From: Moraxellaceae bacterium
GTDB taxonomy: Bacteria > Pseudomonadota > Gammaproteobacteria > Pseudomonadales > Moraxellaceae
DNA: 64,000 nucleotides
NCBI GenBank assembly: GCA_020697295.1
Contig: JAJFBF010000005.1
Location: 13,994-77,993, forward strand
Reading direction: 5' to 3'
Shown here: piece after piece, positions 33,854 through 56,284 of the stretch
Layout of the letters: each line of letters begins with the position of its first letter
Position numbering within the stretch: position 1 is the stretch's first letter
Notes under the pieces: generated by a model
What the model saw: the letters and a program-made list of their open reading frames with translations, nothing else
What the model was told of the DNA's origin: nothing
The model's database searches: none
Position numbers and translations under genes: made by a program

Positions 33854-35194
33854 ATGTCTGATACCAGCCCCGATCTCCTGCATGCCCTCGCCACCGGCGC
33901 CCGCAACGGCGCCGAGCTGCAGGCGCGCCTGGGCGTCAGCCAGCCCACGGTTTCCCGCCTGGTGCGGGCCGCTGGCAACGAGGTGATCGTGATCGGGCGT
34001 GCCCGCGCCACCCACTATGCCCGGCGCCGCCGGATCCCCGAAGTTGGCGATGACCTGCCGCTCTACCGCATCGACCCCCAGGGCGACGTCCACCGCTTCG
34101 GGCATCTCTATCCGCTGGTGGCCGGGGAGTTCGCCTGTGCCTTCGAGGGCCAGGCGTCGGTGCTGCATCCGGGATTGCCGTGGTTCCTGCAGGACATGCG
34201 GCCACAGGGCTTCATGGGCCGCGCCTTTGCCCGGCATTTCGCGACCTCCCTCAATCTCCCCGGCCGTCTGCCGGACTGGGATGACGACGCCCATCTCATC
34301 GCCATGGCGCTGTACGGCGAGGACCTCGCCGGCAACCTGATCGTCGGCGACGCCTCCCTCGAGCGCTTCTATCGGCGGGCCCTCGCCGGGGATGCCATTC
34401 CCGAGGCGGGGCGGGCCGCGGCCTATCCACGGCTGGCCGAAGCCTTTCTCGACGAGCAGCCCGGTTCGAGCGCGGGCGGCGAACAACCCAAGTTCACCGC
34501 CCGACTGGCGACGCCTGGCGGGGGCATTCGTTCCGTCATCGTGAAATTCAGCCCCACCGGCAATGACGCCGCCGCTGTGCGGTGGCGGGATCTGCTGCGT
34601 GCCGAGCAGGCGGCGCTGGCCTGGCTGCGCGAGCAGGGTATTCCTGCGGCCGCGAGCCAGCTGGTCGAGGCGGGCGGGCGCCTGTTCCTGGAGGTCGAGC
34701 GCTTCGATCGGGTGGGAGAGCGGGGGCGGCGCGGACTGCTGTCGCTGGCGGCAATCGATGACCATCACTTCGGGCTGCGCGGGAACTGGTCGGCAATGGC
34801 CGCGCGGCTGCAGCAGCAGCGCATGGTCACGCCCGGCGAGGCCAGGACCATGCGCCTGCTGGATGTGTTCGGGGCCCTGATTGCCAACAGCGATCGTCAC
34901 TTCGGCAATCTCTCGCTGTTCGTGGACGACTTCACGCATGCCCTGGCGCCGGCCTATGACTTGTTGCCGATGGCCTGCCGGCCGACGGATCAGGGCGAGG
35001 TGCGCGCGCCGGACTTCCTCCCGCCGCTGCCCTCCGCCGCCAACGCGGACGTGTGGGACGAGGCCCTGGCGCTCGCGCGCGAATACTGGCGCCGGCTCAC
35101 GGATCTTCCGGCGTTGTCCGCCGACTTTCGCGCCATTGCCGCCGGGAATGCCCGGCGTCTCGCCAGCCTGGAGGCGATCCGGCCGCCGCAGTGA
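33854..35194 (+). CDS. HipA-family Ser/Thr kinase with fused N-terminal HTH (YjjJ/HipH-like)
   Basis: N-terminus NGAELQARLGVSQPTVSRLV (HTH). GGEQPKF and LIANSDRHFGNLSLF are HipA catalytic-core motifs. Confidence 0.85.
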   Translation: MSDTSPDLLHALATGARNGAELQARLGVSQPTVSRLVRAAGNEVIVIGRARATHYARRRRIPEVGDDLPLYRIDPQGDVHRFGHLYPLVAGEFACAFEGQASVLHPGLPWFLQDMRPQGFMGRAFARHFATSLNLPGRLPDWDDDAHLIAMALYGEDLAGNLIVGDASLERFYRRALAGDAIPEAGRAAAYPRLAEAFLDEQPGSSAGGEQPKFTARLATPGGGIRSVIVKFSPTGNDAAAVRWRDLLRAEQAALAWLREQGIPAAASQLVEAGGRLFLEVERFDRVGERGRRGLLSLAAIDDHHFGLRGNWSAMAARLQQQRMVTPGEARTMRLLDVFGALIANSDRHFGNLSLFVDDFTHALAPAYDLLPMACRPTDQGEVRAPDFLPPLPSAANADVWDEALALAREYWRRLTDLPALSADFRAIAAGNARRLASLEAIRPPQ

Positions 35195-41671: not shown

Positions 41672-42910
41672 CTAGACGGCCCAGCGCTCCCCATCGGCGT
41701 GCCACTCGACCTTGTCATAGAGGCCGCTGAATTCCTGCGGATTGAAGCTGTGAATGGGTACTAGCCGCTCCGGAGCCAGGCCAGTCACAAATCGACGCAG
41801 CGTCGGGACATCCGCATGACCGGAAGTATGGATGGAATGACGCGGTATTCCCTGAGCCTCCAGCCAGTTCTTCAGGTCGTCATAGCTGCCGCTCTCCCAG
41901 TAGCCTTGCCACTGTGAGTAGACATAAGCCGCGCCCTTGAGGCAGGCGGCACGCTCAAGGTCATTGGAATGCAACGGCCGGAACAGCAGCGCATAGCGCC
42001 CGGGATCCGCCGCCAGTGCTTCGGCGTAGATTCGCTTGGACTGGTGTCGGGCAAGCAGGTCAAAGCAGCCCTGGCGCTTTATCTGCAGGCGTTGGCGGAA
42101 GGGGACGTAGAGGGCGACCCCTTCCCAGTCGGACTGCGGCAGTCGCTTGCCGCCGGCGGCCTCCAGGATGGCGGCGGCATACAGGTCGATGACCAGCGTG
42201 CGGCCACTTTTTTTGGCGGCGCGGAAGAGGGTCACCACGCGGTCGATGTTCTGCGCCGAGGCATGCACCATGACCAGGCCCGCGGTATCGCGGCAACAGG
42301 TGGTGAGCTCCGCCTCCAGTTCCGACTCTGTCGGGTAGGCGGGCGATTCCTCATTGCGGCCGAGTGACGTCCCTTCCATCAACAGGGCATGGATGGGCGA
42401 GGGCGGCGCCGCCAGCAGGCGGTCCAATAGCGCTGACTTGCGGCCGTGTCCGCGGAAATCGCCGCTGTAGAAGATCCGTCGACCGCCGGCTTCCACCATG
42501 AGCGCATAGGCGTCGTAGGCCGAGTGATCGACCAGGAAAGGGGTGATGCGGAACGGGCCGACCTGCAACGGTACGCGGTCCACGAGTTCGGGGCCCTCGA
42601 GGCCGGGCAGCACCTGGCCGGTGAAGGGCGCCGCCGCCTGCACGATGCGGCGCGCGGCCTTGCCCATCACGACGGGGATGCCGGACGGCAGGTGGTGCAG
42701 CAAGCCGTAGTGGTCCTGGTGCGGGTGCGACACGACCACGGCGCAGGGTGCCAGGCCGTTCAGGTCGAGGCTGGCGGGAAGCCGTTCGCGGGAATTGTCG
42801 GGGGCGTCGAGCGGCAGTCCGAGGTCGATGATCAGGCGCTGGCCTTCGTGTTCGAGCTCGACACAGGAGCCACCGATCTGGGTGGCGCCACGATGGATGC
42901 AGGCGTGCAT
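41672..42910 (-). CDS. MBL-fold (beta-CASP / RNase J-like) metallo-hydrolase
   Basis: VVVSHPHQDHYG (HxHxDH) and C-terminal HTSGHA motif. ATG at 42910. Confidence 0.8.
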   Translation of the reverse strand: MHACIHRGATQIGGSCVELEHEGQRLIIDLGLPLDAPDNSRERLPASLDLNGLAPCAVVVSHPHQDHYGLLHHLPSGIPVVMGKAARRIVQAAAPFTGQVLPGLEGPELVDRVPLQVGPFRITPFLVDHSAYDAYALMVEAGGRRIFYSGDFRGHGRKSALLDRLLAAPPSPIHALLMEGTSLGRNEESPAYPTESELEAELTTCCRDTAGLVMVHASAQNIDRVVTLFRAAKKSGRTLVIDLYAAAILEAAGGKRLPQSDWEGVALYVPFRQRLQIKRQGCFDLLARHQSKRIYAEALAADPGRYALLFRPLHSNDLERAACLKGAAYVYSQWQGYWESGSYDDLKNWLEAQGIPRHSIHTSGHADVPTLRRFVTGLAPERLVPIHSFNPQEFSGLYDKVEWHADGERWAV

Positions 42911-43123
42911 GGGAGTTCTCCGGGCGGTGTGGTTGCGTACTTGGGGAATCGTTGCGTATGAGTCCGGGCATCCCGTCTGGCGGTCTGCGGTGTCCATTAT
43001 GGTCCGCACCAGCGACGGAATGCGTCGCGGTCAATTCGGCGACCTCCGGGCCGGCTTGCGACGCAAGATGACGCACGCGCGTGTGCTAATGGCAGCCTCG
43101 GACACTTCGCCTGGAGCCAGTGC

Positions 43124-44005
43124 ATGCAGCAGATTCCCCGGCAACAGTTGCGCCGCTGGTGCTGGTACGCCGGCCGCGGCCGGAACGGCAATGTCGGGAT
43201 GTGGAATGGCGAGGAGTTCCTGGTGCTGACCGCCACGTTGCGGCCCTCGATCAAGCAGGAACCCTATTTCGACGTTGACGGCGGTTGCTTCCAGCCGTTC
43301 CTGCGCATTGAGGAGGGCGTGGTCCGCGAGCCCTTTGTGGAGCAGGGGATGGAGACGCGGTATGCCGTGGAGATGGCCTACGGCGTGGAATGCGCAGATG
43401 ACTTCACGGCGCTCCTGGCAGATGCCGCTACGCTCCCCGTCATCGTCGGTGGCAGCAGTGCGCTGTCGCTGTTCCTGGACCAGAGGCCCTGGCCGGCAGA
43501 GGTGTGGTTGCTGGCAGGCACGACCGGCGCGGATGACGTCGTGCGGCAACTGGGATCTGATGTCCACGCAGGGGCAGGAGGAGCCATCGTCCGTGCCTCA
43601 CGGGGCCGACTGGAGATATGCGTTAGGATCGTTCCCGACGAGGTCCTCGGGGCCCTGTATGGGATGTCGGCAAGATCCCTGCCGTGGCAGGTCACTACCT
43701 TGTCGCCGTCGGGCGTGCTTTGCGGCTGCCTGTGGGAAAGCTCGCAGGACGAGAGCCCGCGGCAATCTGCGGAATCGGTGGCCCTCGATGCCCTGGACTG
43801 CCTGGCGGAGGCGGACGTGGTGGCGGTGGAGGCCTTCCTGGCCGGCCGCCTCTGGCCGCTGGCCGATGCCCTACTGGCGGAGTGGAAGGAGCAGGCCCGG
43901 CGGCGCCGCTGGAGCTGGAGCGAGGTGGTGCTCGAGCGGCGCCGGCTCCAGGCGGGGCGATTCGAGGATGGGAATTTCAGCCCTTCAGCAGGTAGCCATT
44001 TTTGA
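43124..44005 (+). CDS. hypothetical protein
   Basis: 293-aa ORF with no recognisable motif. Its 3' end overlaps the convergent gene by 29 nt. Confidence 0.45.
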   Translation: MQQIPRQQLRRWCWYAGRGRNGNVGMWNGEEFLVLTATLRPSIKQEPYFDVDGGCFQPFLRIEEGVVREPFVEQGMETRYAVEMAYGVECADDFTALLADAATLPVIVGGSSALSLFLDQRPWPAEVWLLAGTTGADDVVRQLGSDVHAGAGGAIVRASRGRLEICVRIVPDEVLGALYGMSARSLPWQVTTLSPSGVLCGCLWESSQDESPRQSAESVALDALDCLAEADVVAVEAFLAGRLWPLADALLAEWKEQARRRRWSWSEVVLERRRLQAGRFEDGNFSPSAGSHF

Positions 44006-44987
44006 TTAGGCCGCTGAAAGCGGCAATGTCCAGCAGGGTGCTCGCGTGCATGGCGTAGCCTGCGAAGTTGGACACGAAGAACCTGACGTCGAAACCAGGA
44101 TCCTCATTTCCGAGGATGGATTCCAGCTCTGCGATCTCGCGTCTTAGCGCGCTGCTGCGGGGATTGGCATTGGCAATTACAAAAAGGATAATTGGCCGCT
44201 GTTCAATAGATGCCTGCAGCTGCATGTTAGTGTTGGCGATTTTTATTAGCTTTAGCGCTTGAAGCTGGGAAAGTTGGTAATTGACCGTATCCACCAGCTC
44301 CTGACGGCAATTCACGAGGAATTTTTGCATGTCTTTGAAGTGCTTGGTCATGCCTGATTTTTTTTCTGTTAGTGAATTATCGCCGTATTTAACTTCGACG
44401 ATAACTGGCCGGCAGAGGCGAGCGCTCTTGTGATTGCGATCCTCTGAAAGCCACTCTACTCCTAGCATGTCAAAGCGAAAGCTGTTCTTCTTGCCGCTCA
44501 GGCCTTGTAGCGGCGATGTATTTTTATCGACATTAATTGGGCTGGCATATTCGATATCCGTGAAGAAGTACTCGGTCTTGTTGGACAGGCGAGAGAAGTT
44601 GTTCTCACGGAAAATCAATTGCTGGAACTCTCGCTCGTCCTTGGAGGTTCTTGCCATGGATAGGTCCATCTCCTGCTTAAGTTCGGCGAATTTATCCACC
44701 CATTGTTTGGCGGCATCGACTGTAGCTAGCGGGAGGACATTTGCTGTCAGCCAGGTTTTTAGCGTTGCATTTTCCTGGCGGATGTAGTTTTCATCGAATT
44801 CGGGAATATAGTGGCGTATGCCGCCGGCCTTGGTGAGCTGGAGCAGGTTTCCTCCGCGATAATAGATATTGATGTAGTCCTCTCGAATGGCCAGCATGAG
44901 AGTATGGTCATTCTGCACCCGCGTGAGAATGGGGTTGAGGAATCCACTCTTGAGGTCTTCCATGAATTGCACATCTAGCCGTCGCAT
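43977..44987 (-). CDS. PD-(D/E)XK-like hypothetical protein (low GC)
   Basis: 336 aa from ATG at 44987 (AAGGAG SD). FRFDMLGV ... PVIVEVKYG gives a D...E-x-K arrangement. Markedly AT-richer than its surroundings. Confidence 0.6.
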   Translation of the reverse strand: MRRLDVQFMEDLKSGFLNPILTRVQNDHTLMLAIREDYINIYYRGGNLLQLTKAGGIRHYIPEFDENYIRQENATLKTWLTANVLPLATVDAAKQWVDKFAELKQEMDLSMARTSKDEREFQQLIFRENNFSRLSNKTEYFFTDIEYASPINVDKNTSPLQGLSGKKNSFRFDMLGVEWLSEDRNHKSARLCRPVIVEVKYGDNSLTEKKSGMTKHFKDMQKFLVNCRQELVDTVNYQLSQLQALKLIKIANTNMQLQASIEQRPIILFVIANANPRSSALRREIAELESILGNEDPGFDVRFFVSNFAGYAMHASTLLDIAAFSGLIKNGYLLKG

Positions 44988-45256
44988 CGGATATCTCCTT
45001 GTTGTTATTTGATATAGCGGCTTTCGGTCTTTGCCGATTGCGTCAGGTGCATTTCGGGTTGATCCGGCGCTGCATTTGGCGAGCATAGTTGTCAGGCCCA
45101 GGAAGGGGGGCAAATCGATGCCTTCATTGTCGCCCAGCAGTGCCGGCTGACCTTACTGGTACGCTTACATGTACTGCAAGGCAGGCAGAGGCTACTGTAT
45201 CCGAAAGGACTCCTCCGTACCGTAGATGCGGCTGGCTGTTCCGCCAGTCGGGTGTC

Positions 45257-47023
45257 TCATTCGTCTTCCGGCCCTGATTCCGAGCAATCCATGAGATTTG
45301 ACAGCGCGTCCCGCAGCGACTGCTGCCGCTGCAAGTCGCCCAAGGAAAATGATCGGCGGGCGCCCGCCGGCGAAGCACTGTCGGCAAGGCGGACAAAACG
45401 GAGCGAGGCGCCCGGATCCGGGCAATAGGGGACGCAGGCGGCCACCTCCGGGCTATCAGGATGCAAGTACACCATCAGCTCCTGCAGCACGGTCTCGCCC
45501 TCGCGGGCAGCGAAGCTGTCGGCATCACGCAGCCGGTGGAGCAGCTCGTCGGTCATGGCCAAGCGTTCCCAGCGCGCGATGCGTTCCGGCAAGTGCAGCT
45601 GAATGGACGGGTCGGGCATCGCCTGAGTGATAAGCGACGTCGCTTCATCAAAGCCTGATGGCTCAAACTCATCTTCCGGATGGGGTGGTTGGACAGCGTC
45701 CAGATACGTCCAGTAGGCGGCGAAGGGCATCCTGTCCTGTGGGCACAAATAGAAGTAGGGCGGCTCGAAGGGGCCCTCGGGCATGCAGCCCTCCAGCCAG
45801 GCCAAGATGATGTCGATGGTCGCCTGCCGGGGTGGCTGATTGGCATAGGTCCTTGCCTCCCGCAGGATCCAGCCCGGCAGCGATTGCTCGAGCAGTACGG
45901 TGCAGCGCTCGGGCCAGGCCATGATATAGGCGGCCATCTCGCCGCCCTGAAGGCTGGCTTGGTAGCGGGCGATGCAGTTCTGCATGTAGATGCCTTCGAA
46001 TACCAGCCGGCCAATGGTCCGGATTGGCGTCAGCCAGGGCACGGCCGGAAGTGCAGGAGATGGAAAGTCGGCAGCGTCGGCCTGCGCGTCTGGCAAGACT
46101 CCCCTGGCCATGCGTGACTTGAATCGCCGCTCCATCCGGCGGAGTTGCCTCTCAAGCCATCTCACGTTCGGAGCCGCCTTCACGAGTCCCTTCAAGCCGC
46201 CCTTGCCCTGGAGCTGGCACTGGTAATCGAGCCGCTCAAGCGTCAGCACGAAAGTGTTCGGCCGTAATTTCTCGCCGGTCTTGAGGCAGCGATGGAAGAG
46301 AGGGGCGAGATCCTGTCCCCTGAGGTAGGTGCGGTCCAGGGCGAGCGCAAACGCCTGAAGGGTCACGAGCCGCTTCCGAAAAGGCCGGGATGACTGGAGG
46401 AAAGCGGGCAACAGCGGAGCGTAATTACGCATCTTGCCGTGGTCGAGCAATTCCAGGCGGTCAGCAAAGCGGCCGGGGAAGCAGGCGGCGAAATCCAGCA
46501 TGAGCCTGCCGTATTTGCGGGCGTCCAGTGGCGCAGGCCGAGCGTCGGCATCGTACCAGAACAGTTCCCGGCGAGGCCGTGACAGGAGTTCGCGTACGTG
46601 CAGCTGCGCCGCCGCCAGGCCCTTCAGCCTAAGCAGTTGCAGCCACTCCGCCACGTGTTGCCGGAAGCACGAAGGAAATGCCAGCAGTCCCTCCAGCTCT
46701 GGATGATGGCGCAGCAGGAACAGCACCTGAAGCTGGTCGAGATCGTCGCGACGCAGCCGTTCCAGCAGTCCGGCCGGAAATTGCGACCGCCACGCAGTCA
46801 GGTGGCTTGGGAGGCTCGCTTCCTCCAGATCCCTGATGCCCAGCGTCCATAGCCCGGCGTGCTGCCGGACGAGTGCATCCTGTCCCTCCACTGTGGCGTG
46901 CTCATCATTTTCCGCCGGGTACAGCCCGGCGTTCCAGCTGCCGAGGAGTGGTGGCAGCCGGATGCCCCGGCATGAGCTGACGTTGAAGCGGAGGCAGGCA
47001 TTGGTCGTGCTGGTCAGGTGCAC
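45257..47023 (-). CDS. PcfJ-like domain protein with C-terminal extension
   Basis: Core RLVFEGIYMQNCIARYQASLQGGEMAAYIM. GTG at 47023 is preceded by AAGGAG. The ORF track start at 47119 (TTG) is less likely. Confidence 0.7.
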   Translation of the reverse strand: MHLTSTTNACLRFNVSSCRGIRLPPLLGSWNAGLYPAENDEHATVEGQDALVRQHAGLWTLGIRDLEEASLPSHLTAWRSQFPAGLLERLRRDDLDQLQVLFLLRHHPELEGLLAFPSCFRQHVAEWLQLLRLKGLAAAQLHVRELLSRPRRELFWYDADARPAPLDARKYGRLMLDFAACFPGRFADRLELLDHGKMRNYAPLLPAFLQSSRPFRKRLVTLQAFALALDRTYLRGQDLAPLFHRCLKTGEKLRPNTFVLTLERLDYQCQLQGKGGLKGLVKAAPNVRWLERQLRRMERRFKSRMARGVLPDAQADAADFPSPALPAVPWLTPIRTIGRLVFEGIYMQNCIARYQASLQGGEMAAYIMAWPERCTVLLEQSLPGWILREARTYANQPPRQATIDIILAWLEGCMPEGPFEPPYFYLCPQDRMPFAAYWTYLDAVQPPHPEDEFEPSGFDEATSLITQAMPDPSIQLHLPERIARWERLAMTDELLHRLRDADSFAAREGETVLQELMVYLHPDSPEVAACVPYCPDPGASLRFVRLADSASPAGARRSFSLGDLQRQQSLRDALSNLMDCSESGPEDE

Positions 47024-47111
47024 GTGGGCTCCTTCTTGCTCTGGCCTCGGTGCCGGCCTGAGTGGCCGGCACGGTGGAATGCGATGGCGTTGGTCATCGG
47101 ATGCCTCCAGA

Positions 47112-49280
47112 TCAGACAAACCCCATCGACTGCTGCTGCCCGTCCTCCTTCAACGCACATTCCTCGCGCAGCCGTTGCAGCACCGCGCCCGGTGCGCCGA
47201 ACTTGCGGAAGCGGTGCTGCCGCGCCACCACCGCGAAATCCCCCGGCGTCAGCACTTTGAGACGGTCAATCTCAATGCGAAGCGATGCGTCAGGCGTATC
47301 CAGCGCCAGGCCTTCGCACAGCCGCTCGAACAGCGTCCACGCCTGCTCCGCCTGCAGATAGCCAAACTGCAGCTTCTCGTCGAAGCGCCGCAGCGCTGCC
47401 TGGTCCAGCCCCTGCATCAGGTTGGTGGAGGCGATGAAGATGCCCTCGAAGTTGTCCATCTGCGTCAGCATCTCGTTGACCCCGCTGACCTCCCAGGATT
47501 GCCTCGCGCCGCGCCGGTCCTGCAGGAAACTGTCGACCTCGTCGATCAGCAGGATGGACTTGGACTGCGACGCCTCGCGAAAGGCGGCCGCCAGGTTCTG
47601 CTCCGTGCCGCCGACATACATGTCGAGCAGGTCCGAGCACTTCTTGACCAGCAACGGCATGCCGAGCTGGTCCGCCAGCCAGCGCCCGTAGGCGCTCTTG
47701 CCTGTGCCCGGGGGGCCATACAGGCAAAGGCGGGCGTTCCGGTTCTCGCGCAGGCCCTCGGCCAGGGCCGTGAGGTCCGTGTCCACATTCACGAAGCGCG
47801 GGTCGTACCAGGCGGGCAGGGCGCCTTCGTGCTTGCGCACCGGCTCGTGGCCCTGGGCGGTCAGCGTGTTGTTGACCAGCAGCTCCATGGCGCTGCCGCG
47901 ACGGTCGGGGGAAAGGTCGTCACGCACGGCCGAGATCACGGCGGCGGCGCGCGCAATGACGGCGGGCGAGAGCGCCTCGGCGCTGGCGATGCGCGTGATG
48001 GTGCCTTCATCCAGCAGGTCGCCGGCATGGTCGCGGACGATGCGCTCGCGCTCCTGTCGGGGCGGCACGCCCAGCTCCATCACCATGTCGAAGCGGCGCA
48101 GGAAGGCCTGGTCCATGCAGCGGATGGAGTTCGTCAGCCACAGCGTGGGCACCGGGTTTTCTTCCAGCATCCGGTTGATCCAGGCCTTGCGCAGCTGCGC
48201 CGTGCTCTTGCGGCCCCAGGGGCCGTCGCCGTCGTTGAACACGTCCTCGATCTCGTCGAAGAGCAGCAGCGCGCGGTGGCTGACGAGCAGCGACTGCGCC
48301 GCATTGTAGGAGCGCAGACGGTTCTCTCCGCGCACCGGATCCCCTTCCTCGTCCTCGCTCGCCACCTCGAAGAGCTCGCTGCGAGTTTCGCTCGCCAGCA
48401 TCCGCACCATTTCGCTCTTGCCTGTCCCGGGCGGTCCGTAGATCAGCACATTCACGCCTGTCCTGTGCTGCTCCAGCGTGCGCTGCAAATAGGGCAGGAG
48501 GATCTCCAGTTCCCGGGCCGCATGCGGATAGTTGTCCCGCGCCAGGGTGCCGGGCCGGCTGAGAAAGACCGTGTCCCGGATCAGCTGCAGCGGATCCTGT
48601 TCCTCCGACTGCATGCGGTCGACGAAGCGCAGGGAAACGACGTCCAGCTTGCCCTTGAGCGGAGGGGAGGAGGAATTGATGTCGACCGTGACCAGTCCAC
48701 AGCGGGCGAGGCCGCCCTTGCTGGAGAGGGCGAATTTTACCGCCACCTCCGGCAGGTCGAGGACAATCGCCAGGACGCTGGACACGCGCCGGGTGGACAG
48801 CCCGCCCAGGAAGTCGGCGGCATCATCGAGCGAGCGTTCCGAGTGCAGCAACACCGTGAACTCCAGGATCCGGCGCTCGGCCTCATCCAGGCCGAGCTTG
48901 TCGGCCAGGCGACTCGCGTTGGCGCCCAGCGTCGCCGGAACTTCCCGGGTGGCGGCCGTCTTCTCCGCGCGGGCGTGCAGCCGCCGCAGTTTGGCCAGCG
49001 CGCTGCGCGGATTGTAGGTGCTCCCCTCCGCCGGCAGATCCTCGAACTCCGAGTCGCAGGAGGGAGAGGTCTGCAGGCCCAGGCTGATCGCCAGGTCGTC
49101 GTTGTTGTAGCCATGCGGGCTGAGGAAGCGCTGGTGGCCGGACAGGGAGATCAGCAGGCGCAGGATCCAGAGCTCGATGATGGGCTGCAGCACCTGCCCG
49201 GTGGGGTACAGGCTGTCCTGGAACAGCATGTTGAGTTCTTCAATGCTGTGCTGGGTGGACGGACGCTTCCGGCGGGGCAT
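47112..49280 (-). CDS. tandem AAA+ ATPase (two classical AAA modules)
   Basis: VLIYGPPGTGKSEM + LLLFDEIED + AFLRRFD. CLYGPPGTGKSAYG + ILLIDEVDSF + AALRRFD. ATG at 49280 with GAGGAG SD. Confidence 0.9.
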   Translation of the reverse strand: MPRRKRPSTQHSIEELNMLFQDSLYPTGQVLQPIIELWILRLLISLSGHQRFLSPHGYNNDDLAISLGLQTSPSCDSEFEDLPAEGSTYNPRSALAKLRRLHARAEKTAATREVPATLGANASRLADKLGLDEAERRILEFTVLLHSERSLDDAADFLGGLSTRRVSSVLAIVLDLPEVAVKFALSSKGGLARCGLVTVDINSSSPPLKGKLDVVSLRFVDRMQSEEQDPLQLIRDTVFLSRPGTLARDNYPHAARELEILLPYLQRTLEQHRTGVNVLIYGPPGTGKSEMVRMLASETRSELFEVASEDEEGDPVRGENRLRSYNAAQSLLVSHRALLLFDEIEDVFNDGDGPWGRKSTAQLRKAWINRMLEENPVPTLWLTNSIRCMDQAFLRRFDMVMELGVPPRQERERIVRDHAGDLLDEGTITRIASAEALSPAVIARAAAVISAVRDDLSPDRRGSAMELLVNNTLTAQGHEPVRKHEGALPAWYDPRFVNVDTDLTALAEGLRENRNARLCLYGPPGTGKSAYGRWLADQLGMPLLVKKCSDLLDMYVGGTEQNLAAAFREASQSKSILLIDEVDSFLQDRRGARQSWEVSGVNEMLTQMDNFEGIFIASTNLMQGLDQAALRRFDEKLQFGYLQAEQAWTLFERLCEGLALDTPDASLRIEIDRLKVLTPGDFAVVARQHRFRKFGAPGAVLQRLREECALKEDGQQQSMGFV

Positions 49281-49449
49281 GGCGGTCTCCTCTTGTTCTT
49301 GGGAGACCATGGTGCTCGCGTATTACGACAGGATGTGTCGCACCCGGTTGGGCCGGCGCTCGGGCTATGGGCCTCGGAACCTGGCGGCGCTTGCCCTGGC
49401 CTTGACCGGACTTTAGGGTTGTCGGCACCAGGCACCAGAAGGGCTCGAC

Positions 49450-49926
49450 ATGCTGGCAATCATTGAAGAATGGATCGATGCGACTCTCGCAAGCCACGCT
49501 GCCGAGAGAGTGTCGTGCGTGAGCCTGTCTCCGCATTTCGAAGGTTATTTTTCGCGGGAATTCCTTTCCCAAAGCTACTTTGTAGTGACGGATGAGCTTC
49601 CCAAGCCTGACTTCCCGGCGCTGCACGACCTGGGCCTGGGAGGATTCCTGGCCCTGGACGCCGATGGCATCACCTACAAGGACACCTATTTCATCCGGCC
49701 GGCCGTGGTCGATAAGGTCGATTTGCACTTTCACGAGCTGGTACATGTCGCCCAGTGGCGGCATCTGGGCGCCCCGGCCTTTATCGAGCGCTATGCCCGG
49801 GAATTGCTGCAATTCGGCTATGAGCGGGCGCCGCTCGAGGAGATGGCCTACTCGCTGCAGCGATATTTTTGCGCCGGCAACGGCAGGCCTGTGGATGTGC
49901 GGAAGTTTGTGCTGGCACGGTGTTGA
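49450..49926 (+). CDS. HExxH protein (DUF4157-like putative metallopeptidase)
   Basis: DLHFHELVHVAQWRHLG resembles the DUF4157 HExxHxxQ signature as I recall it. 158 aa. Confidence 0.55.
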   Translation: MLAIIEEWIDATLASHAAERVSCVSLSPHFEGYFSREFLSQSYFVVTDELPKPDFPALHDLGLGGFLALDADGITYKDTYFIRPAVVDKVDLHFHELVHVAQWRHLGAPAFIERYARELLQFGYERAPLEEMAYSLQRYFCAGNGRPVDVRKFVLARC

Positions 49927-50029
49927 GTCGGGCAGGCTAGACAGAAGGCTGCGTGCAGTGGCCGAAGCTGTAGTCGTGAATGCGCAAGTCCTAAGGTCGG
50001 AAGTATATGCACGATGTGCTTCTGGCCAA

Positions 50030-50854
50030 TCAGGCCAGAAAAATGTAGGCCCCGTAGGACAGTCCGCGAACCAGGGGGCAGGCCACTATCACCATGGCTT
50101 CTTCGCTGCAGAAGGGCGCCAGGTGTTCGCCGGCAATCGTGTACTCATCAAGTCCGATGGTCTCGGGCATCACCAGAACGCAGCAGAGCCATTTCCCGGC
50201 AAAGTAGGGAGGAAGGCTCGTCATCATGTCACGCATGCGGTCCTCGCCGGTGTCTGCGAGCGGCATCCACAGCACATGACCTTCTCCTGTGCCTCGCATG
50301 GTTGAGAAGTCTTCGAAGTCGATGCAGATTATTGTGGGGGCATTCACGGTGCTCCAGAGAGCCTGCGCCGCATCGAGGGCCCTCAAACCTGCGGCGGGAG
50401 GGAAAAGCTGGTCGACCTGGTCCAGCAAAGCTTGCCGCAGTGCGTGAGGTAGCGGGCCCGGGACATTCTGAAAGACCGTTACCAGGTTGCCCCTCGCCTT
50501 GGCGTGGCGCGCGATAACCAGGGCGATCAACAGCGAATCTGGCGGCGTCCCGATGACCAGGGTTACCCAGCCGATGCCGGACATTATCTCCGCCAGGGTT
50601 TGCTCGTTGGTGTCTATGACGTGATCTGCAGGCAGTGCTAGCGGGTCATCAGCGGTGCCGCCCGCAAGGCTTCTTGGCAGGGTAAGGCGGATGCAGGGCA
50701 GCCCGGCGCTCGGTTCGGCTCCGGGTGTAAGGGCCTGGTAGGCTGGAAGATCCTCCTGCCCGAATGCCAGCCCGGCAATGCCGGTCTCGGCCTCCCCGCA
50801 AATGATGAGGTTGGCGAACGGGGGGTATTCTTTAATTTCGAACACATCGGGCAT
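50030..50854 (-). CDS. degenerate FtsZ/tubulin-like protein (paralog of 20407-21201)
   Basis: ANLIICGEAETG / WVTLVIGTPPDSLLIALVIARHAKARGNLVTVF / IICIDFEDFSTMR / CCVLVMPETIGLDEYTIAGEHL...MVIVACPL...YIFL. ATG at 50854 with GGAG SD. Both paralogs start with MPD. Confidence 0.6.
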   Translation of the reverse strand: MPDVFEIKEYPPFANLIICGEAETGIAGLAFGQEDLPAYQALTPGAEPSAGLPCIRLTLPRSLAGGTADDPLALPADHVIDTNEQTLAEIMSGIGWVTLVIGTPPDSLLIALVIARHAKARGNLVTVFQNVPGPLPHALRQALLDQVDQLFPPAAGLRALDAAQALWSTVNAPTIICIDFEDFSTMRGTGEGHVLWMPLADTGEDRMRDMMTSLPPYFAGKWLCCVLVMPETIGLDEYTIAGEHLAPFCSEEAMVIVACPLVRGLSYGAYIFLA

Positions 50855-51324
50855 GGCACATCTCCGGTTGGCGGAGTGAGCATGTGCAGTACTTGCGACA
50901 GCCAATGTCGTGTTCCGGGGAAGGGCCATGCCTGCCTGCGACCAGAGAAGCCTGTCTGGATGGCGACTGCTGTCCGGCTGGATCGGCAGTCGCCATTTTC
51001 AGCTAGTGCTTCTAATTCAACGGCAGTCCAAGCATCCAGAGCACATGCAGGTGCCGGGGTGGCAGATACATCCATGATGTAACCCCGGCTGGGCACGAAG
51101 AGGGAAACCAGCTCCGGTTCCCGGTTGTAGACAATGCTGACCCGGTCGAAGCTGAAGGCTCCTTCCCGGTGCAGGCGGGCGCGAAGTACCCCGCGGACCT
51201 GGCTCACGTGGTAGTCCCGCTGCAAGACGAGGGGATGTCCGGGCAGTGTCGGAACCCAGGTAAATCCGGACTGAACCAGCCGGTCCTCCAGGTCAGGAAT
51301 GCGGGCCTCACTGACTGTTTCCAT
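50638..51324 (-). CDS. hypothetical protein, 3' part doubtful
   Basis: The first 125 codons or so look protein-like (METVSEARIPDLEDRLVQSGFTWV...). The last 100 codons or so are Pro/Arg/Gly-rich and overlap the FtsZ-like gene by 217 nt. Confidence 0.35.
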   Translation of the reverse strand: METVSEARIPDLEDRLVQSGFTWVPTLPGHPLVLQRDYHVSQVRGVLRARLHREGAFSFDRVSIVYNREPELVSLFVPSRGYIMDVSATPAPACALDAWTAVELEALAENGDCRSSRTAVAIQTGFSGRRQAWPFPGTRHWLSQVLHMLTPPTGDVPCPMCSKLKNTPRSPTSSFAGRPRPALPGWHSGRRIFQPTRPLHPEPNRAPGCPASALPCQEALRAAPLMTR

Positions 51325-51548
51325 GGCGATCCTCCGTTGTTGAGTTCACGCTAACCCGGATTCCGGATTCGTCAACGGCCTCTAACCCGCCGGCTCACTG
51401 CTCAGCAACGACGCGGGTTTCAGAGAGCTTCAGATGGAGGTTGGCGGATGATGGTCATACCACTTATTGAATTCAGTGAGACAGGTTCTGTCGCATGTGG
51501 CGCGTAGAATCCGCCGGCCCACCTGGATTACAGAAACGGAGCCTTCCC

Positions 51549-52136
51549 ATGGCGATACCCCCAGGCACACCTGGCGCATCAGGCCAGAAAGTCCGAACCA
51601 GCCAGTCGCATCCGCTCAGAATCGATGTATTGCCGGCGCCGTGGAGTCTTGGATTTATTGGTATGACCATTTGTCCGGGCAAGAAAGGCGAGTCGGTTTA
51701 CGGCGCCGCCTGGGACCGGGATCTGGCCACTGACCTCGACGCCATAGAGGCTTGGGGAGCGGAGTGCGTTGTCACCCTGATGGAGGACTTCGAGTTCGCC
51801 ATGCTGGGCATTCCTGACTTTCCTTCCGTCATGGCCGCGCAGTCCTTCGAGTGGCTGCACCTCGAGATTCGGGATGCTGACGTCCCGGATCACCGATTCG
51901 AGAGCGCCTGGCCATTGGCCCGGGAGAAGCTCCTGGCCGTACTGGAGCGAGGCGGGAGAGTGCTGGTCCATTGCCGGGGCGGTCTTGGCCGCACGGGTCT
52001 CATGGTGGCCCGGCTTCTGGTAGAACAGGGCATGGCTGCCGAGGAGGCAATCCGGCTGACCCGGTCAGTACGACAGGGAGCCATCGAGACAAAGGCGCAG
52101 GAGCGACATGTGCTGGCCCTGGTTCCACTGACCTGA
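51549..52136 (+). CDS. CX5R protein-tyrosine / dual-specificity phosphatase (CDKN3-like)
   Basis: Active site VLVHCRGGLGRTG. ATG at 51549. Confidence 0.8.
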   Translation: MAIPPGTPGASGQKVRTSQSHPLRIDVLPAPWSLGFIGMTICPGKKGESVYGAAWDRDLATDLDAIEAWGAECVVTLMEDFEFAMLGIPDFPSVMAAQSFEWLHLEIRDADVPDHRFESAWPLAREKLLAVLERGGRVLVHCRGGLGRTGLMVARLLVEQGMAAEEAIRLTRSVRQGAIETKAQERHVLALVPLT

Positions 52137-52601
52137 ACCACCTGCGAGCCGGATGATGGTCCGGTACCCGAGGGAGTCCTGGACCAACTGCGCAAGGCGG
52201 TGCCTCAGGACCAGGCCTCGAATGTCAGCAGTTCGCTATTCCTCAGGCATCGCTTCCGAACGATTCGCAGCGCGACTGATGGGGCTCCGCCCTTTAGAGC
52301 CGGTTGCCTCCGAACACCCTTGGAGGCAGTCATGGGCCTCCGGGCGTAGTGCATTTGCTGCTCAAAAAACGCTCAAAAATGACCCCTTCCTTATATAGGT
52401 AGGGGTCAGCCTGATTGCGCAGCGCAACTCGGCCGAGTGTCAGGTCTTGCCCGGCTGGGGCTCCTGCCGAGACTGACTCCCACCTTGTTTTTGAATCTCC
52501 CTGTTTGGAAAGCCGCGCCAGACCTGGGTTTGCGTGGGTATCCGGAGGGTAAGGCGGGGTAGGGTGGTAGTGTTTATTTCTTTGACATGGAATTCTCCGA
52601 A

Positions 52602-52639
52602 ACCCGCCGTCCGCAAGGACGGCGGGTTTTGTGCTTTTG
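52602..52639 (+). terminator. orphan rho-independent terminator
   Basis: CCCGCCGTCCgcaaGGACGGCGGG followed by TTTTGTGCTTTT. No convincing CDS within 460 nt upstream. Confidence 0.6.
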
Positions 52640-52736
52640 GGGGTCAGGCAATGAGCACTATTCTTATGGGCAGTATTGCCGGGAAGGGTGGCCAGAACGG
52701 CTGTCCCTCTGCCGCTGACCGGAAGGAGACTCTGGG

Positions 52737-53243
<507 letters not shown>

Positions 53244-53368
53244 TGGGCACTGTGCTGGGAGCAGGGCGGCAGGCCTCACGGGATGGCGATAAATTTCCGC
53301 AAGAAATCTATTCGGCAAATGGCCTTATCGGTTTGTAAGAAACTGAATTAGTTTAATAATTTCAATGA

Positions 53369-53390
53369 AATATCTATTCAATATCTATTC
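53369..53390 (+). promoter_or_regulatory. two perfect tandem 11-bp units (candidate operator) upstream of a WYL regulator gene
   Basis: AATATCTATTC AATATCTATTC in an AT-rich spacer, 230 nt upstream of 53620. Confidence 0.45.
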
Positions 53391-53619
53391 ATGCAGTCTA
53401 TGGGCCGCGCCTGTCCTCCCATCCTGCTCGGCCCCGCTCAGTGTTTCCCGAGCTATCTTCCTTCCCCCGCTTTGCTAACGTGCTGTCGTCAAAGCCGACA
53501 TGTCGATACTGGCCACAGGAACCGGTACACAATCGGAATATGTCGCATTTTCAGGCAGATGGTTCACCGCAAGGGGAGCCGATAGCCTTTGAGCCCGTCT
53601 TGGGATAAGGGGAAGGACC

Positions 53620-54489
53620 GTGGAAGACACCACCCGATCGGCATGGCCCGAGCGCTGGGATTTGCTGTTGCGCTATCGCCTGATCGAGATCATCGCGCTC
53701 TGGGAAGGGCGCCTGACCACCAATCACCTGACCCGCGCCTTCGGCATCGGCCGCCAGCAGGCCTCCAAGGACATCAACACCTATCTGGGCAAGACCGGCG
53801 GCAATCTCGTTTATGACAAGAACCTCAAGGGCTACAAGCCGGGCCCGGATTTTCGTCCGCGCTTCACGCGCGGGGTGGCCGATGAATACCTGCAATTGCT
53901 GGCCGCGCAAAATGACTTGGCGGAGAGCATCGGCGAGCTCAATGTCCGCCTGCCCAACACCGAGGTGATCGCGCCGCCGGCGCGCCTGATCCGCCCGCTG
54001 GTGCTGCAGCGCGTCGTGCGCGCCTGTCGCGAGAAGCTGCGCCTGGAGATCGTCTACGGCTCCATGGCCAATCCCGAGCCCGAGACGCGCGTCATCCAGC
54101 CGCATACCCTGGTGTACAACGGTTATCGCTGGCATGTGCGCGCCTGGTGCGAGAAAAACCGGGATTTCCGCGATTTCGTGCTGACGCGGATCTATGACGA
54201 GCCGGACTGGCTGACCGAGCAGACGATGCCCGTGGAAGCGGACGAGGCCTGGAACACCCGGGTCGATATCGAGGTAGTGGCCGATAGCCGTCTCACGCCG
54301 GCCCAGCAACGGCTGGTAGCGGAGGACTGGGGCTTCGAGCACGGCGTGCTGCGGATTCCGACGCGGGCGGCACTGGTGGCCTACAGCCTGCAGTTGTTCC
54401 GGCTGGCGCCGGGCATGCGCGATGCCACCGAACTGGAGCAGCCCCTGCATGTCCGTAACCTGGAGCAGTTGCAGCGCTGGGTGTTCTGA
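53620..54489 (+). CDS. HTH + WYL-domain transcriptional regulator
   Basis: RLTTNHLTRAFGIGRQQASKDINTYL (HTH). QPHTLVYNGYRWHVRAWCEKNRDFRDFVLTRI (WYL). GTG start with GGGGAAGGA. Confidence 0.8.
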   Translation: MEDTTRSAWPERWDLLLRYRLIEIIALWEGRLTTNHLTRAFGIGRQQASKDINTYLGKTGGNLVYDKNLKGYKPGPDFRPRFTRGVADEYLQLLAAQNDLAESIGELNVRLPNTEVIAPPARLIRPLVLQRVVRACREKLRLEIVYGSMANPEPETRVIQPHTLVYNGYRWHVRAWCEKNRDFRDFVLTRIYDEPDWLTEQTMPVEADEAWNTRVDIEVVADSRLTPAQQRLVAEDWGFEHGVLRIPTRAALVAYSLQLFRLAPGMRDATELEQPLHVRNLEQLQRWVF

Positions 54490-54958
54490 AGAGGCGCGCA
54501 GTTGAAAGGGTCGCCGGCAGAGGGCTTCAGGAACAATCGGCCAACTCCCTTTGGCTTGAGTCAATTGCCCCGTCTGGGCTGCCATTGGCGCAACGGGAGC
54601 CAGGAAGGGGGGAAATGACCGCTTCCGGCGGGTGGCGCCTGTCGGGGGCCAGGATCAGTCAGCAAGGGTGGCGGCTGGCGTCAGTCCACGGCCTGGAGCC
54701 CGGCTTTCCGGGAGGCGCCAGGCCCCGTGGCACGTGATCGGCACCAGTCTCCGTCGCCCATGTGGCAGGCTGCTACTCCCCCCGAGTGGGAAGGATTCCC
54801 GCCGGCGGGAGTGTCAACTACCCCCTGAGTCCGATACCCCCCCACGTTTTGCGGACGAACTGCACGTTTGGCTGCAAGGCCACGCGCTCCGGCGTGGCAT
54901 CATGGCTGAAATGGCCTTTAAGGGGCCTTTCCGTACTTCTTAATAGGTAGCCTGTTTG

Positions 54959-56284
54959 ATGATTCCCCATCCCGCCATCCTGGTCGTTGATGACCAGAGC
55001 AGCAATCTGATTGCCATGGAGGCGGTGTTCGAGGGCGAGCCGGTGGATCTGGTCAAGGCCAACTCGGGGGCCGAGGCCCTCAAGCTGATGCTGCAGCGCG
55101 ACTTCGCCCTGGTCCTGCTCGATGTGCAGATGCCCGAGCTGGATGGCTTTGAAGTGGCTGAAATCATGCGCAGCAACCCGCGCACCGAGTCGACGCCCAT
55201 CATCTTCCTGACGGCCCTCAGCAAGGAGCAGCGCTATATCTTCCGCGGCTATGAAACCGGTGCCGTCGACTATCTCTTCAAGCCCATCGATGCCTCCATT
55301 CTGCGCAGCAAGGTGCGGGTCTTCCTCGAGCTCGATCGCAAGAATCGCAGCCTGCGCGAGAGTCTGCGCCTGCTGCAGCAGGAGCGTGACCACAACCAGA
55401 CGCTGCTGCGCTCGCTGTCCGAAGGCCTGCTGGGCATCACCCAGAGCGGCAATGTCTTCTATGCCAACCCTACCGCCGAGGAGATGCTGGACAGTCCCTT
55501 GCGCGATCTCATCGGGCGTCGCCTGACCGAGATTTTCCAGCTCTACAACGAGAACGCCGAGCCAGTGGAATGGCCCTTGCCGGAGCTGCTGTCCTCCTGC
55601 GAGCGTGGCGAGCGCGTGCATCGCGATGATCTATTCATGAATCGCGATGGCCAGCAGATCGCCGTCGAGATTTCCGCCAATCCGCTCATGTCCGGCGATC
55701 CGGCACGTGCCGGCGTGGCCGGTGTGGTGGTGGTGTTCCGGGATGTCTCCTCGCGCCGCCAGAACGAGAAGGTGCTGACCCGCAAGGCCACGCTCGACAG
55801 CCTGACCGGTCTTTGCAACCGCGCTGAATTCGAGCGCCTGCTCGAGGAGCGCGTGGCCCAGGCCAATCGCAGCGAAACCAGCCTGGCGCTGCTCTACATC
55901 GACCTCGATCGCTTCAAGGCCATCAACGACACCCTCGGCCATCATGTCGGGGACCAGGTCCTGAAGGCGGCGGCCAAGCGCCTGCATGACAGCTCCCGCG
56001 CCACCGACCTTGTCGCCCGCCTGGGCGGCGACGAGTTTGTCATTGTCCTCGAAAGCACCGAGCCGCGCCGGGCCGCCAGCCTGGTTTCCGGCAAGGTGCT
56101 GCAGGCGTTCGCGCGAGTGGTGGACGTCGCTGACGGCAGCAAGCTGCAGATCGGCACCAGCGTCGGCATCGCCATCTACCCTGACGACTCCACCCATTCC
56201 GAAGACCTGCTCAAGTGCGCGGACAAGGCCATGTACCAGGCCAAGACCGCCGGCCGTAACACCTACCGCTTCTATCGCGGCTAA
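54959..56284 (+). CDS. response-regulator receiver / PAS / GGDEF diguanylate cyclase
   Basis: ILVVDDQSSN...LVLLDVQMPELDG (REC). PAS-like middle region. DSLTGLCNRAEF and RLGGDEFVIVL (GGDEF). Confidence 0.9.
   Translation: MIPHPAILVVDDQSSNLIAMEAVFEGEPVDLVKANSGAEALKLMLQRDFALVLLDVQMPELDGFEVAEIMRSNPRTESTPIIFLTALSKEQRYIFRGYETGAVDYLFKPIDASILRSKVRVFLELDRKNRSLRESLRLLQQERDHNQTLLRSLSEGLLGITQSGNVFYANPTAEEMLDSPLRDLIGRRLTEIFQLYNENAEPVEWPLPELLSSCERGERVHRDDLFMNRDGQQIAVEISANPLMSGDPARAGVAGVVVVFRDVSSRRQNEKVLTRKATLDSLTGLCNRAEFERLLEERVAQANRSETSLALLYIDLDRFKAINDTLGHHVGDQVLKAAAKRLHDSSRATDLVARLGGDEFVIVLESTEPRRAASLVSGKVLQAFARVVDVADGSKLQIGTSVGIAIYPDDSTHSEDLLKCADKAMYQAKTAGRNTYRFYRG

Follow-up and report, generated by a model that had tools for sequence, protein, structure and literature searches.

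Within a 64,000-nucleotide (nt) stretch of the genome of a Moraxellaceae bacterium (GenBank assembly GCA_020697295.1, contig JAJFBF010000005.1, positions 13,994 to 77,993 of the forward strand; hereafter the window), we found two genes of a protein family, here called pseudo-FtsZ, which has very probably kept the fold of FtsZ and lost its guanosine triphosphate (GTP) site. The first copy heads an operon with a gene for a PcfJ-domain protein (PcfJ1). The second lies in an interval (45.2-54.8 kb) that the first-pass annotation had read as a second FtsZ-like/PcfJ-like module, expanded with a double AAA+ ATPase, an HExxH protein and a CX5R phosphatase. All the genes of that description are present, and we consider it likely that they form a mosaic of separate cassettes. 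The explanation that best covers the whole (a mosaic architecture, with GTP-independent FtsZ mimics and a PcfJ partner) is offered tentatively, at somewhat less than even chances. The features on which the argument turns are listed below, where labels of the type L001 stand for other contigs compared with the window, those from its relatives having 70-90% nt identity in shared or flanking genes.

20407-21201, minus strand: pseudo-FtsZ-1, 264 amino acids (aa), starting MPDTDF, first gene of the pseudo-FtsZ/PcfJ operon; orthologs in L004, L005 and L012
18508-20391, minus strand: PcfJ1, 627 aa, PcfJ domain near the C-terminus (Pfam PcfJ 35.3 bits, E 1.2e-8)
50030-50854, minus strand: pseudo-FtsZ-2, 274 aa, starting MPDVFE, with degenerate GTP-binding loops; open reading frame (ORF) with an identical annotated protein in the metagenome-assembled genome (MAG)
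50528-50551, minus strand: T4 position of pseudo-FtsZ-2, GTPPDSLL instead of GMGGGTGTG (FtsZ alignments)
50294-50332, minus strand: T7-like loop of pseudo-FtsZ-2, I175-R187, IICIDFEDFSTMR (HMMER and hhalign)
45257-47023, minus strand: PcfJ2, 588 aa, divergent PcfJ core and C-terminal extension of ~190 aa; start backed by five homologs
45824-46039, minus strand: PcfJ core of PcfJ2, residues ~329-400, including FEGIYMQNCIARY

By sequence comparison, the two pseudo-FtsZ proteins are true, diverged paralogs (34% identity over 261 aa, BLASTP E 7e-37, far beyond chance), as had been proposed from their common MPD start and T7-like loop. A word-indexed search of 5.8 billion proteins returned five relatives, and an exhaustive HMMER search of 1.84 billion with the family profile found 18 cluster representatives (15 at E <=1e-10); no relatives were found in the GTDB genomes (scanned twice), the JGI metagenomes or IMG/VR. 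No model of Pfam, NCBIfam, PADLOC or PHROGs matches either copy (PADLOC also lacks a match for the PcfJ proteins of the window). In particular, Pfam Tubulin (PF00091) and FtsZ_C (PF12327) give no hit at E up to 0.1 for both window copies and four other members, the outlier P0142 alone reaching FtsZ_C (33 bits), and PDB sequence searches with single proteins gave no match. The MAG annotation (K0Q68_302, _331, _334) calls the FtsZ-like and PcfJ-like products “hypothetical protein” and the ATPase “AAA+ family ATPase”. One distant match of the pseudo-FtsZ profile, P0141 (670 aa), has a doubled architecture, both halves being complete FtsZ-like units that match Pfam Tubulin and FtsZ_C, and carries a modified T4 (GGLGGGLCSGG).

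The relationship to FtsZ emerges from structure prediction and profile comparison. An AlphaFold2 (AF2) model of pseudo-FtsZ-2, based on a 20-sequence alignment, reached a predicted local distance difference test (pLDDT) of 82.6 and a predicted template modelling score (pTM) of 0.84, and FtsZ accounts for every one of its top 50 Foldseek matches in the PDB (probability 1.00, best E 2e-12), with alignments that span ~300 columns at template modelling (TM) scores of 0.56-0.74; matches in the viral library were weaker. With the 13-member core profile, the eight best PDB sequences are FtsZ (E 0.005-0.012), and with two FtsZ-nearer outliers (P0140 and P0142) added, PDB FtsZ is reached at E 1.7e-10. 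Additionally, hhalign aligns the core family with E. coli FtsZ (a sequence entered by hand) over 189 columns (probability 89.8%, E 1.8e-6). As modelled, pseudo-FtsZ is a two-domain FtsZ-fold protein, with a Rossmann-like N-domain, H7 and a C-terminal subdomain. The PDB sequences nearest to the profile are the FtsZ proteins of Pseudomonas, E. coli and Klebsiella, and these gammaproteobacterial best matches suggest that pseudo-FtsZ descended from the ftsZ of the host lineage itself.

FtsZ/tubulin proteins are defined by GTP-driven polymerisation, and it is the nucleotide site which pseudo-FtsZ has lost. The GGGTGTG loop is missing: the T4 position, GTPPDSLL in pseudo-FtsZ-2, reads GESAESRA in pseudo-FtsZ-1, and a glycine-rich T4 occurs in 0 of the 20 family sequences. 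T1 reads CGEAETG and is likewise not glycine-rich, the T3 region is the least conserved of the family (residues 57-80 are disordered in the AF2 model), H1 is absent from both the alignment and the model, and H6/early H7, which in FtsZ carries the guanine contacts N165 and D187, is deleted. The Q47-equivalent of T2 is kept, within the most conserved block of the family (P-x-Y-Q-A-L), and the other nucleotide contacts are gone. Nevertheless, the two-domain fold of FtsZ is shared over the full length, and H7, the T7 D-x-x-D aspartates, the L272-equivalent and the entire C-terminal subdomain are kept and alignable. IICIDFEDFSTMR aligns to the FtsZ T7 sequence LMNVDFADVRT (IDFED versus VDFAD), with D179 and D182 of pseudo-FtsZ-2 corresponding to FtsZ D209 and D212, a D..D pair found in at least 75% of the core members. 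Pseudo-FtsZ further differs from FtsZ in its length (264-276 aa), in ending with the last strand (no C-terminal linker, tail or FtsA/ZipA-binding peptide), in failing PF00091 and PF12327, and in being encoded in a defence island and not in the division and cell wall (dcw) cluster. The ratio of nonsynonymous to synonymous substitution rates (dN/dS) is 0.23-0.5 in the family at dS 0.2-1.3 (0.23-0.34 for pseudo-FtsZ-2), from which we take the genes to be functional and under purifying selection. Based on the motifs and the model together, we hold it very probable that pseudo-FtsZ is a GTP-dead family of FtsZ fold.

Two earlier families, FtsZl1 and FtsZl2, were found by Makarova and Koonin (2010, PMC2875224) through the GGGTG(S/T)G loop, which they retain. 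The first of them, associated with GTPases, carries a coiled coil and is missing both T6-H7 and the C-terminal domain; FtsZl2 is longer by a region of ~300 aa and shows no gene context (PMC2875224). Pseudo-FtsZ is, similarly, a divergent non-division member of the superfamily beside a normal FtsZ, but it shows the reverse pattern, with the GTP loops gone and H7, T7 and the C-terminal domain kept. Our literature searches retrieved no described family, conserved and under selection, that keeps the FtsZ fold and the T7/C-terminal face without the nucleotide site.

The second partner belongs to the PcfJ family (PF14284), which is named after PcfJ of pCF10 and is common in phages and conjugative plasmids; literature searches gave no functional study of it. 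PcfJ1 clears the gathering threshold of the Pfam model (35.3 against 25 bits), and PcfJ2 scores below it (13.5 bits, E 0.064). In tblastn against plasmids it matches a single record, a PcfJ-domain protein of Marinomonas algicola, through residues 320-411 (E 1e-4), and this protein does pass Pfam PcfJ. A five-sequence alignment gives the common core E-G-x-x-M-x-[HN]-C-[VI]-x-x-Y ... T-x-x-L ... N. PcfJ2 has the family core E-G-x-x-M-x-x-C-[IV]-x-x-Y ... T-[VLM]-x-L ... N, but departs from the family in His to Asn (its M-x-H-C motif reads M-Q-N-C, N349 being invariant in five PcfJ2 orthologs) and in K-G to R-T. We conclude from these alignments that PcfJ2 carries a weak but real PcfJ core, which, together with the ~190-aa extension, bears out the first reading of this gene. 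Its homologs are five only (76-100% identity, dN/dS ~0.3); it has no match in NCBIfam, PADLOC or PHROGs, and neither a PDB search with the PcfJ-domain profile nor a GTDB genome scan for relatives of PcfJ1 found any.

The relation between the two PcfJ proteins is of another kind than that between the FtsZ-like ones. PcfJ1 and PcfJ2 have no BLASTP similarity, hhalign finds a 43-column core only (probability 6.7%, E 0.005), and both have long unique N-terminal regions. Among plasmids, PcfJ1 has a single match, to another PcfJ protein, whose gene lies in a stretch of a Sphingomonas plasmid record that resembles a prophage. Given these different best relatives, and no similarity outside the core, they look like different subfamilies, which argues against duplication of a whole module: of the duplicated architecture proposed earlier, the paralogy of the FtsZ-like genes stands and that of the PcfJ pair looks doubtful.

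The link between the two families comes from gene order. In the window, 15 nt separate pseudo-FtsZ-1 from PcfJ1; the distance is 16 nt in L005 and widens to 103 nt in L004, and the pair is maintained in both contigs at 52-56% aa identity with dS >1, so spaced and so diverged that we regard it, by its sequence record, as a conserved operon. The plasmid of Marinomonas algicola (NZ_CP061942.1) offers a separate case, where the PcfJ gene (L021:5059-6681; WP_191603752) overlaps by 4 nt a gene for a 320-aa FtsZ-like protein annotated as hypothetical (6678-7640; WP_191603751), next to hsdR. The two pairs have in common a PcfJ-domain gene translationally coupled to a short, tail-less FtsZ-fold gene beside a restriction system, and no protein of the plasmid database is closer to PcfJ2 than the Marinomonas PcfJ. 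They differ in gene order, which is reversed, and in the interface affected. The Marinomonas protein (Pfam Tubulin/FtsZ GTPase, E 3.9e-32, 112 bits) keeps T1 (GIGGCGCS), NTD, T3 and GGGTGTG, and it is its T7 that is altered (RIDFAH, with N207 to R and D212 to H), the opposite interface to that lost in pseudo-FtsZ. Its similarity to the pseudo-FtsZ family is marginal (hhalign E 0.0035, in the correct register), and to judge by sequence it is a short, interface-altered FtsZ paired with PcfJ. From both cases, the combination of an FtsZ-like gene with PcfJ reads as a genuine recurring pair, and a functional link between pseudo-FtsZ and PcfJ is, on balance, probable. A 256-aa gene upstream of the Marinomonas PcfJ gene and a 237-aa gene after a Shewanella HExxH gene were considered as FtsZ-like candidates and are not FtsZ-like. 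Literature searches found no FtsZ-like protein or PcfJ in defence islands.

Other pseudo-FtsZ genes have varied surroundings. L007 carries two in tandem (L007:10001-11619; 263 and 267 aa, 24-nt gap), with a NERD helicase and a DUF726 protein upstream and, downstream, a homolog of a small conserved window protein; by analogy with BtubA/B, this tandem may be a heterodimer. In L008 the order is WYL, dynamin-like GTPase, pseudo-FtsZ (the GTPase being directly upstream), and in L006 a BrxR-like WYL gene is directly divergent from pseudo-FtsZ, with sbcD after it. Pseudo-FtsZ-2 and the convergent HExxH gene occur together in L001, L002 and L019; upstream of its start codon, synteny is lost within 35 nt in every relative: at that place L003 has a JetD-like gene, L001 has sbcC, and L019 has a divergent gene for 662 aa.

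Several observations weigh against the reading of pseudo-FtsZ as a GTP-dead FtsZ acting with PcfJ. With regard to the fold, a six-sequence AF2 model was poor (pLDDT 50), the good one relied on an alignment containing the two FtsZ-nearer bridging sequences, and the core-only profile reaches PDB FtsZ at E 0.005 only; T7 itself is imperfect, FtsZ N207 (N-x-D-x-x-D) being replaced, and the case for lost GTP binding is built on motifs and a model. With regard to the pairing, pseudo-FtsZ stands without an adjoining PcfJ in the second window copy, L006 and L008, and L007 has its tandem instead. PcfJ proteins of phages (phiCD211, Shewanella 1/4) are solo among early or replication genes, and the 334-aa gene after the PcfJ gene of Pantoea piersonii proved not to be FtsZ-like. 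Furthermore, every pseudo-FtsZ contig comes from relatives of one lineage (70-90% nt identity in the flanking genes), and for this reason the repeated contexts are not independent observations, Marinomonas being apart.

In an FtsZ filament, the H7/T7/C-terminal face of one subunit enters the GTP pocket of its neighbour, and FtsZ variants engineered at the interface cap filaments in a dominant-negative manner. With an FtsZ fold and no nucleotide site, pseudo-FtsZ would not treadmill. We propose that, unable to cycle GTP, it may act by protein-protein contact as an FtsZ mimic: the kept H7/T7/C-terminal (“bottom”) face would dock on host FtsZ protofilaments at the end that bears GTP, and the dead “top” face would block further growth of the filament. 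The outcome would be sub-stoichiometric capping and division arrest, as an abortive-infection or toxin output. A PcfJ-domain protein encoded next to it, as in pseudo-FtsZ-1/PcfJ1, would serve as its cognate partner, in the role of sensor or regulator, and WYL/BrxR repressors would control pseudo-FtsZ expression. Based on the sequences and the model, this specific capping mechanism is rather unlikely to be right in its particulars, and it is favoured only slightly over a decoy role, from which the evidence does not discriminate it.

As a decoy, pseudo-FtsZ would imitate FtsZ in order to bind an FtsZ-targeting protein, without touching host FtsZ. PcfJ would then be an FtsZ-binding effector and the operon a pair of toxin (PcfJ) and mimic-antitoxin, with solo pseudo-FtsZ copies, which do exist, neutralising or sensing incoming division inhibitors of phage PcfJ type or Kil type; phage lambda Kil is an inhibitor that targets FtsZ (PMC3961180). 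In the operon, the FtsZ-like gene stands ahead of PcfJ at close spacing, as antitoxin genes usually do with their toxins, and decayed catalytic loops with selected surfaces kept fit a binding-only role. Both partners evolve fast (dN/dS ~0.3), and PcfJ-domain proteins are found alone among early/replication genes of the inspected phages, as well as in a prophage-like region. However, with no functional study of PcfJ retrieved, binding of PcfJ to FtsZ is purely hypothetical, the Marinomonas pair has the reverse gene order and a partner that retains its GTP motifs, and the conserved His of the PcfJ family is replaced in PcfJ2. We regard the decoy as an unlikely reading.

Less probable still is a structural or membrane-remodelling role, in which pseudo-FtsZ would form a scaffold without need of nucleotide (paralogs possibly combining into a hetero-oligomer) and work with the neighbouring dynamin-like GTPases and the NERD helicase, not with FtsZ. 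This would explain why pseudo-FtsZ recurs close to dynamin-like GTPases (L008 and 10.3-14.7 kb of the window) and to NERD-UvrD helicases (L005, L007 and the window), the tandem of L007 recalls BtubA/B, and FtsZ-like families tied to GTPases and membrane remodelling are a precedent (PMC2875224). These neighbours, however, come from related genomes, in shuffled order and at variable distances; no membrane-targeting segment or tail is evident in pseudo-FtsZ, and the Marinomonas pair is without GTPase or helicase neighbours.

The question of one module or several concerns the interval around pseudo-FtsZ-2, whose further genes, with one usual companion from elsewhere in the window, are:

47112-49310, minus strand: double AAA+ ATPase, 732 aa, N-terminal domain, D1 and D2, classic AAA clade
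29262-30761, minus strand: DUF2779 (Cas4-like), the usual AAA+ neighbour, here 16 kb off (Pfam E 3.7e-46)
49450-49926, plus strand: HExxH protein, 158 aa, HELVHVAQW, convergent with pseudo-FtsZ-2
51495-52136, plus strand: CX5R dual-specificity phosphatase, HCRGGLGRTG, likely start 51549, divergent from pseudo-FtsZ-2
53620-54489, plus strand: BrxR-like WYL regulator, divergent from pseudo-FtsZ-2 (Pfam WYL E 1.4e-15, PADLOC WYL)

The first-pass annotation had joined the ATPase, the HExxH protein and the phosphatase with pseudo-FtsZ-2 and PcfJ2 into one expanded module with accessory enzymes. As a single system, pseudo-FtsZ-2, the double AAA+ and PcfJ2 (possibly with the HExxH protein and the phosphatase) would work together, for example through an AAA+ unfoldase remodelling an FtsZ-like polymer, by analogy with katanin and spastin on tubulin. 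The three genes do share a strand, a second organism (L019, L020) has AAA+, HExxH and FtsZ-like genes in this order with 71-83% aa identity, AAA+ is followed by PcfJ2 in L012-L015, and the ATPase is of the classic clade. Comparative genomics, on the contrary, shows separate travelling companions. L012 keeps AAA+ and PcfJ2 without the block 49362-54830 (HExxH, pseudo-FtsZ-2, phosphatase, RhuM fragment and WYL), joining the upstream flank of AAA+ to the equivalent of window 54830-55113, and also joins 41.7 kb directly to 30.8 kb. DUF2779 directly follows AAA+ in L008 and on the Rhodoferax and Diaphorobacter plasmids, no distant AAA+ homolog inspected has a PcfJ, FtsZ-like or HExxH gene nearby, the AAA+/PcfJ2 succession is confined to the close relatives L012-L015, and the neighbours of HExxH homologs are unrelated. 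Any single transcript would be interrupted, since the HExxH gene is on the opposite strand. One common system is thereby improbable. Because the component genes travel separately, we interpret the supposed second module as a juxtaposition of cassettes at the island edge, and from these comparisons we hold the mosaic architecture of 45.2-54.8 kb with good confidence. The cassettes would be a solo pseudo-FtsZ-2 divergent from the BrxR-like WYL gene, with the phosphatase and the RhuM fragment inserted between them; the unrelated small HExxH protein; the double AAA+, belonging with DUF2779 and WYL; and a cassette headed by PcfJ2.

The idea that the pseudo-FtsZ genes are decaying, functionless ftsZ duplicates, suggested by the loss of all GTP-binding signatures and the shortened sequence, is in effect refuted by the dN/dS values, measured at dS as high as 1.3, and scarcely credible given ORFs intact in every contig, 18 diverged clusters with conserved motifs and a confident fold.

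The double AAA+ ATPase, described earlier as CDC48-like, does have the motifs seen in it (two GPPGTGKS Walker A, two Walker B and two RRFD). It matches Pfam AAA over two stretches (E 6.5e-46) and phrog_10401 over its full length (E 3.5e-130), and one source names it “SpoVK/Ycf46/Vps4 family”. Like IetA of the IetAS system, it is a tandem classic-clade AAA+ with intact Walker A/B sets, D2 alone matching the IetA models (PADLOC E 5.5e-41). It differs in scoring 119 bits with NCBIfam IteA against a cut-off of 510 (and 72 against 803 with CDC48), in combining two AAA domains with an N-terminal domain of ~250 aa, and in its partners, DUF2779 and WYL; with an IteA score so far below the cut-off and no IetS protease gene adjacent, membership of IetAS was rejected. 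Its homologs on plasmids and a phage scaffold (39-51% identity) lie beside WYL and/or DUF2779, in the order AAA+, DUF2779, WYL on the Rhodoferax and Diaphorobacter plasmids and AAA+, WYL on a Pantoea plasmid and the unverified phage scaffold, the Methylomonas and P. luteola homologs having other neighbours. On this gene-order evidence, the ATPase belongs to an AAA+/DUF2779/WYL unit and not to the FtsZ-like/PcfJ pair; the unit may be an undescribed defence-associated one. As AAA+/DUF2779/WYL-WCX, it recurs on beta- and gammaproteobacterial plasmids (L016, L024, L025, L023), often followed by PLD-like and helicase genes, and in the window (47112-49310, 29262-30761, 24596-25849) it is split by ~16 kb of inserted genes.

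The HExxH family has 174 or more members, mostly in marine Gammaproteobacteria (dN/dS ~0.1), which in L009, L010 and L011 adjoin unrelated genes, including SMODS and DUF2971. It shares the HExxHxxQW motif with DUF4157/eCIS_core and Tox-MPTase4, and some members match these weakly and below threshold (Tox-MPTase4 in 12/29, best E 0.003; eCIS_core/DUF4157 in 9/29, best E 0.015). The window protein differs in having no match in Pfam, NCBIfam, PADLOC or PHROGs, in standing alone with its 158 aa, and in its varied neighbours; it is probably, from its sequence family, an independent small zincin gene. A comparison with contractile injection system (eCIS) loci had been drawn on account of this protein and the double AAA+, with the remark that structural genes were missing. 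The remark holds (no sheath, tube or baseplate family in Pfam scans of ~50 main ORFs of the window), and eCIS membership was rejected, the family's DUF4157 match being below threshold.

The phosphatase, correctly recognised from its HCRGGLGRTG, has by its P-loop and Pfam domain the marks of a dual-specificity/PTP phosphatase (PTP-SAK 47.2 bits against a cut-off of 27, E 3.2e-12; DSPc 35.7 against 33.5), and does not adjoin the FtsZ-like genes in L001, L003, L006 and L019. The L006 ortholog of the neighbouring WYL gene, 88% identical, is directly divergent from another pseudo-FtsZ. An imperfect 22-nt palindrome (53483-53518) lies ~100 nt upstream of the WYL gene of the window, possibly as its operator, and a repeat search upstream of pseudo-FtsZ-2 found no copy of it and no shared operator. 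Between the phosphatase and WYL is a truncated RhuM-family gene (52737-53243, plus strand), covering the first 65 of 252 profile positions. Upstream of pseudo-FtsZ-2, a transcript from 51324 to 50030 had been proposed. The ORF behind it (50638-51324) was rejected as a gene, having no third-position G+C (GC3) coding signal and no family match, and its apparent database matches are the alternative frame of the overlapping FtsZ-like gene; its N-terminal 110 aa are protein-like, possibly a gene remnant. The 640-nt stretch 50855-51494 is accordingly treated as intergenic. A promoter and terminator scan gave signals no better than in shuffled sequence.

Based on Pfam and PADLOC scans, the window up to ~54.8 kb is almost entirely a defence island, with 45.2-54.8 kb at its right-hand edge and core genes from 54956 (GGDEF response regulator, peptidyl-prolyl isomerase, AraC, uracil-DNA glycosylase, lipid A acyltransferase). 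The location of pseudo-FtsZ and PcfJ in the island is indicated by Azaca, the Eleos-like genes, WYL/BrxR and DUF2779. Its remaining features are:

1169-7343, minus strand: Azaca, complete ZacABC (PADLOC)
6141-7343, minus strand: ZacA (PADLOC E 3e-108; also Pfam DUF6361)
4342-6144, minus strand: ZacB (PADLOC E 3e-166)
1169-4384, minus strand: ZacC helicase (PADLOC E 0)
10319-14738, minus strand: three dynamin-like GTPase genes (Eleos LeoA/LeoBC models)
15413-17323: NERD-UvrD helicase, co-directional with the Eleos-like GTPases and the pseudo-FtsZ-1/PcfJ1 operon
17229-17735, minus strand: small conserved protein of ~168 aa downstream of PcfJ1 (tblastn 46% identity to L007:11663-12049)
41672-44990: genes travelling with PcfJ2 in close relatives (synteny in L012 and L013), namely
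41672-43009, minus strand: metallo-beta-lactamase/RMMBL (Pfam)
43124-44005, plus strand: 293-aa protein
43977-44990, minus strand: 337-aa protein

The island also holds three WYL regulators, DUF2779 (Cas4-like), HipA, an ADP-ribosylglycohydrolase and a metallo-beta-lactamase. The HipA-like kinase (33854-35194, plus strand) has an N-terminal winged-helix/MarR-like segment and lies within 30.8-41.7 kb, the segment absent from L012. The 337-aa gene after PcfJ2 stands out by a lower G+C content (the 44-46 kb bin is at 0.56) and matches no family; by eye, its D...E-V-K motif (FDMLGVEW ... VIVEVKYG) may hint at a PD-(D/E)xK nuclease.

What is new here, in our assessment, is the FtsZ family without a GTP site and the pair of PcfJ and FtsZ-fold genes, the AAA+, HExxH and phosphatase proteins being ordinary members or relatives of known families. 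The annotation of the locus is corrected in this sense, with the AAA+ placed in the AAA+/DUF2779/WYL unit and the HExxH protein and phosphatase as apparently unrelated neighbours. The retention of the fold and the T7/C-terminal face, with the nucleotide site discarded, suggests a role in protein mimicry, and the coupling of PcfJ with FtsZ-fold proteins occurs twice, in forms unrelated to each other (one in the lineage of the window, one on the Marinomonas plasmid), which provides a first testable hypothesis for PcfJ, namely FtsZ interaction or control of cell division. That pseudo-FtsZ (as cap or mimic) and PcfJ constitute an unrecognised two-gene conflict module directed at the host division machinery, with PcfJ as its FtsZ-interacting component, is a conjecture that we judge doubtful; if true, a mechanism aimed at the cytoskeleton would join the known defence and conflict systems, and the PcfJ domain would gain its first predicted function, as an FtsZ-interacting domain.

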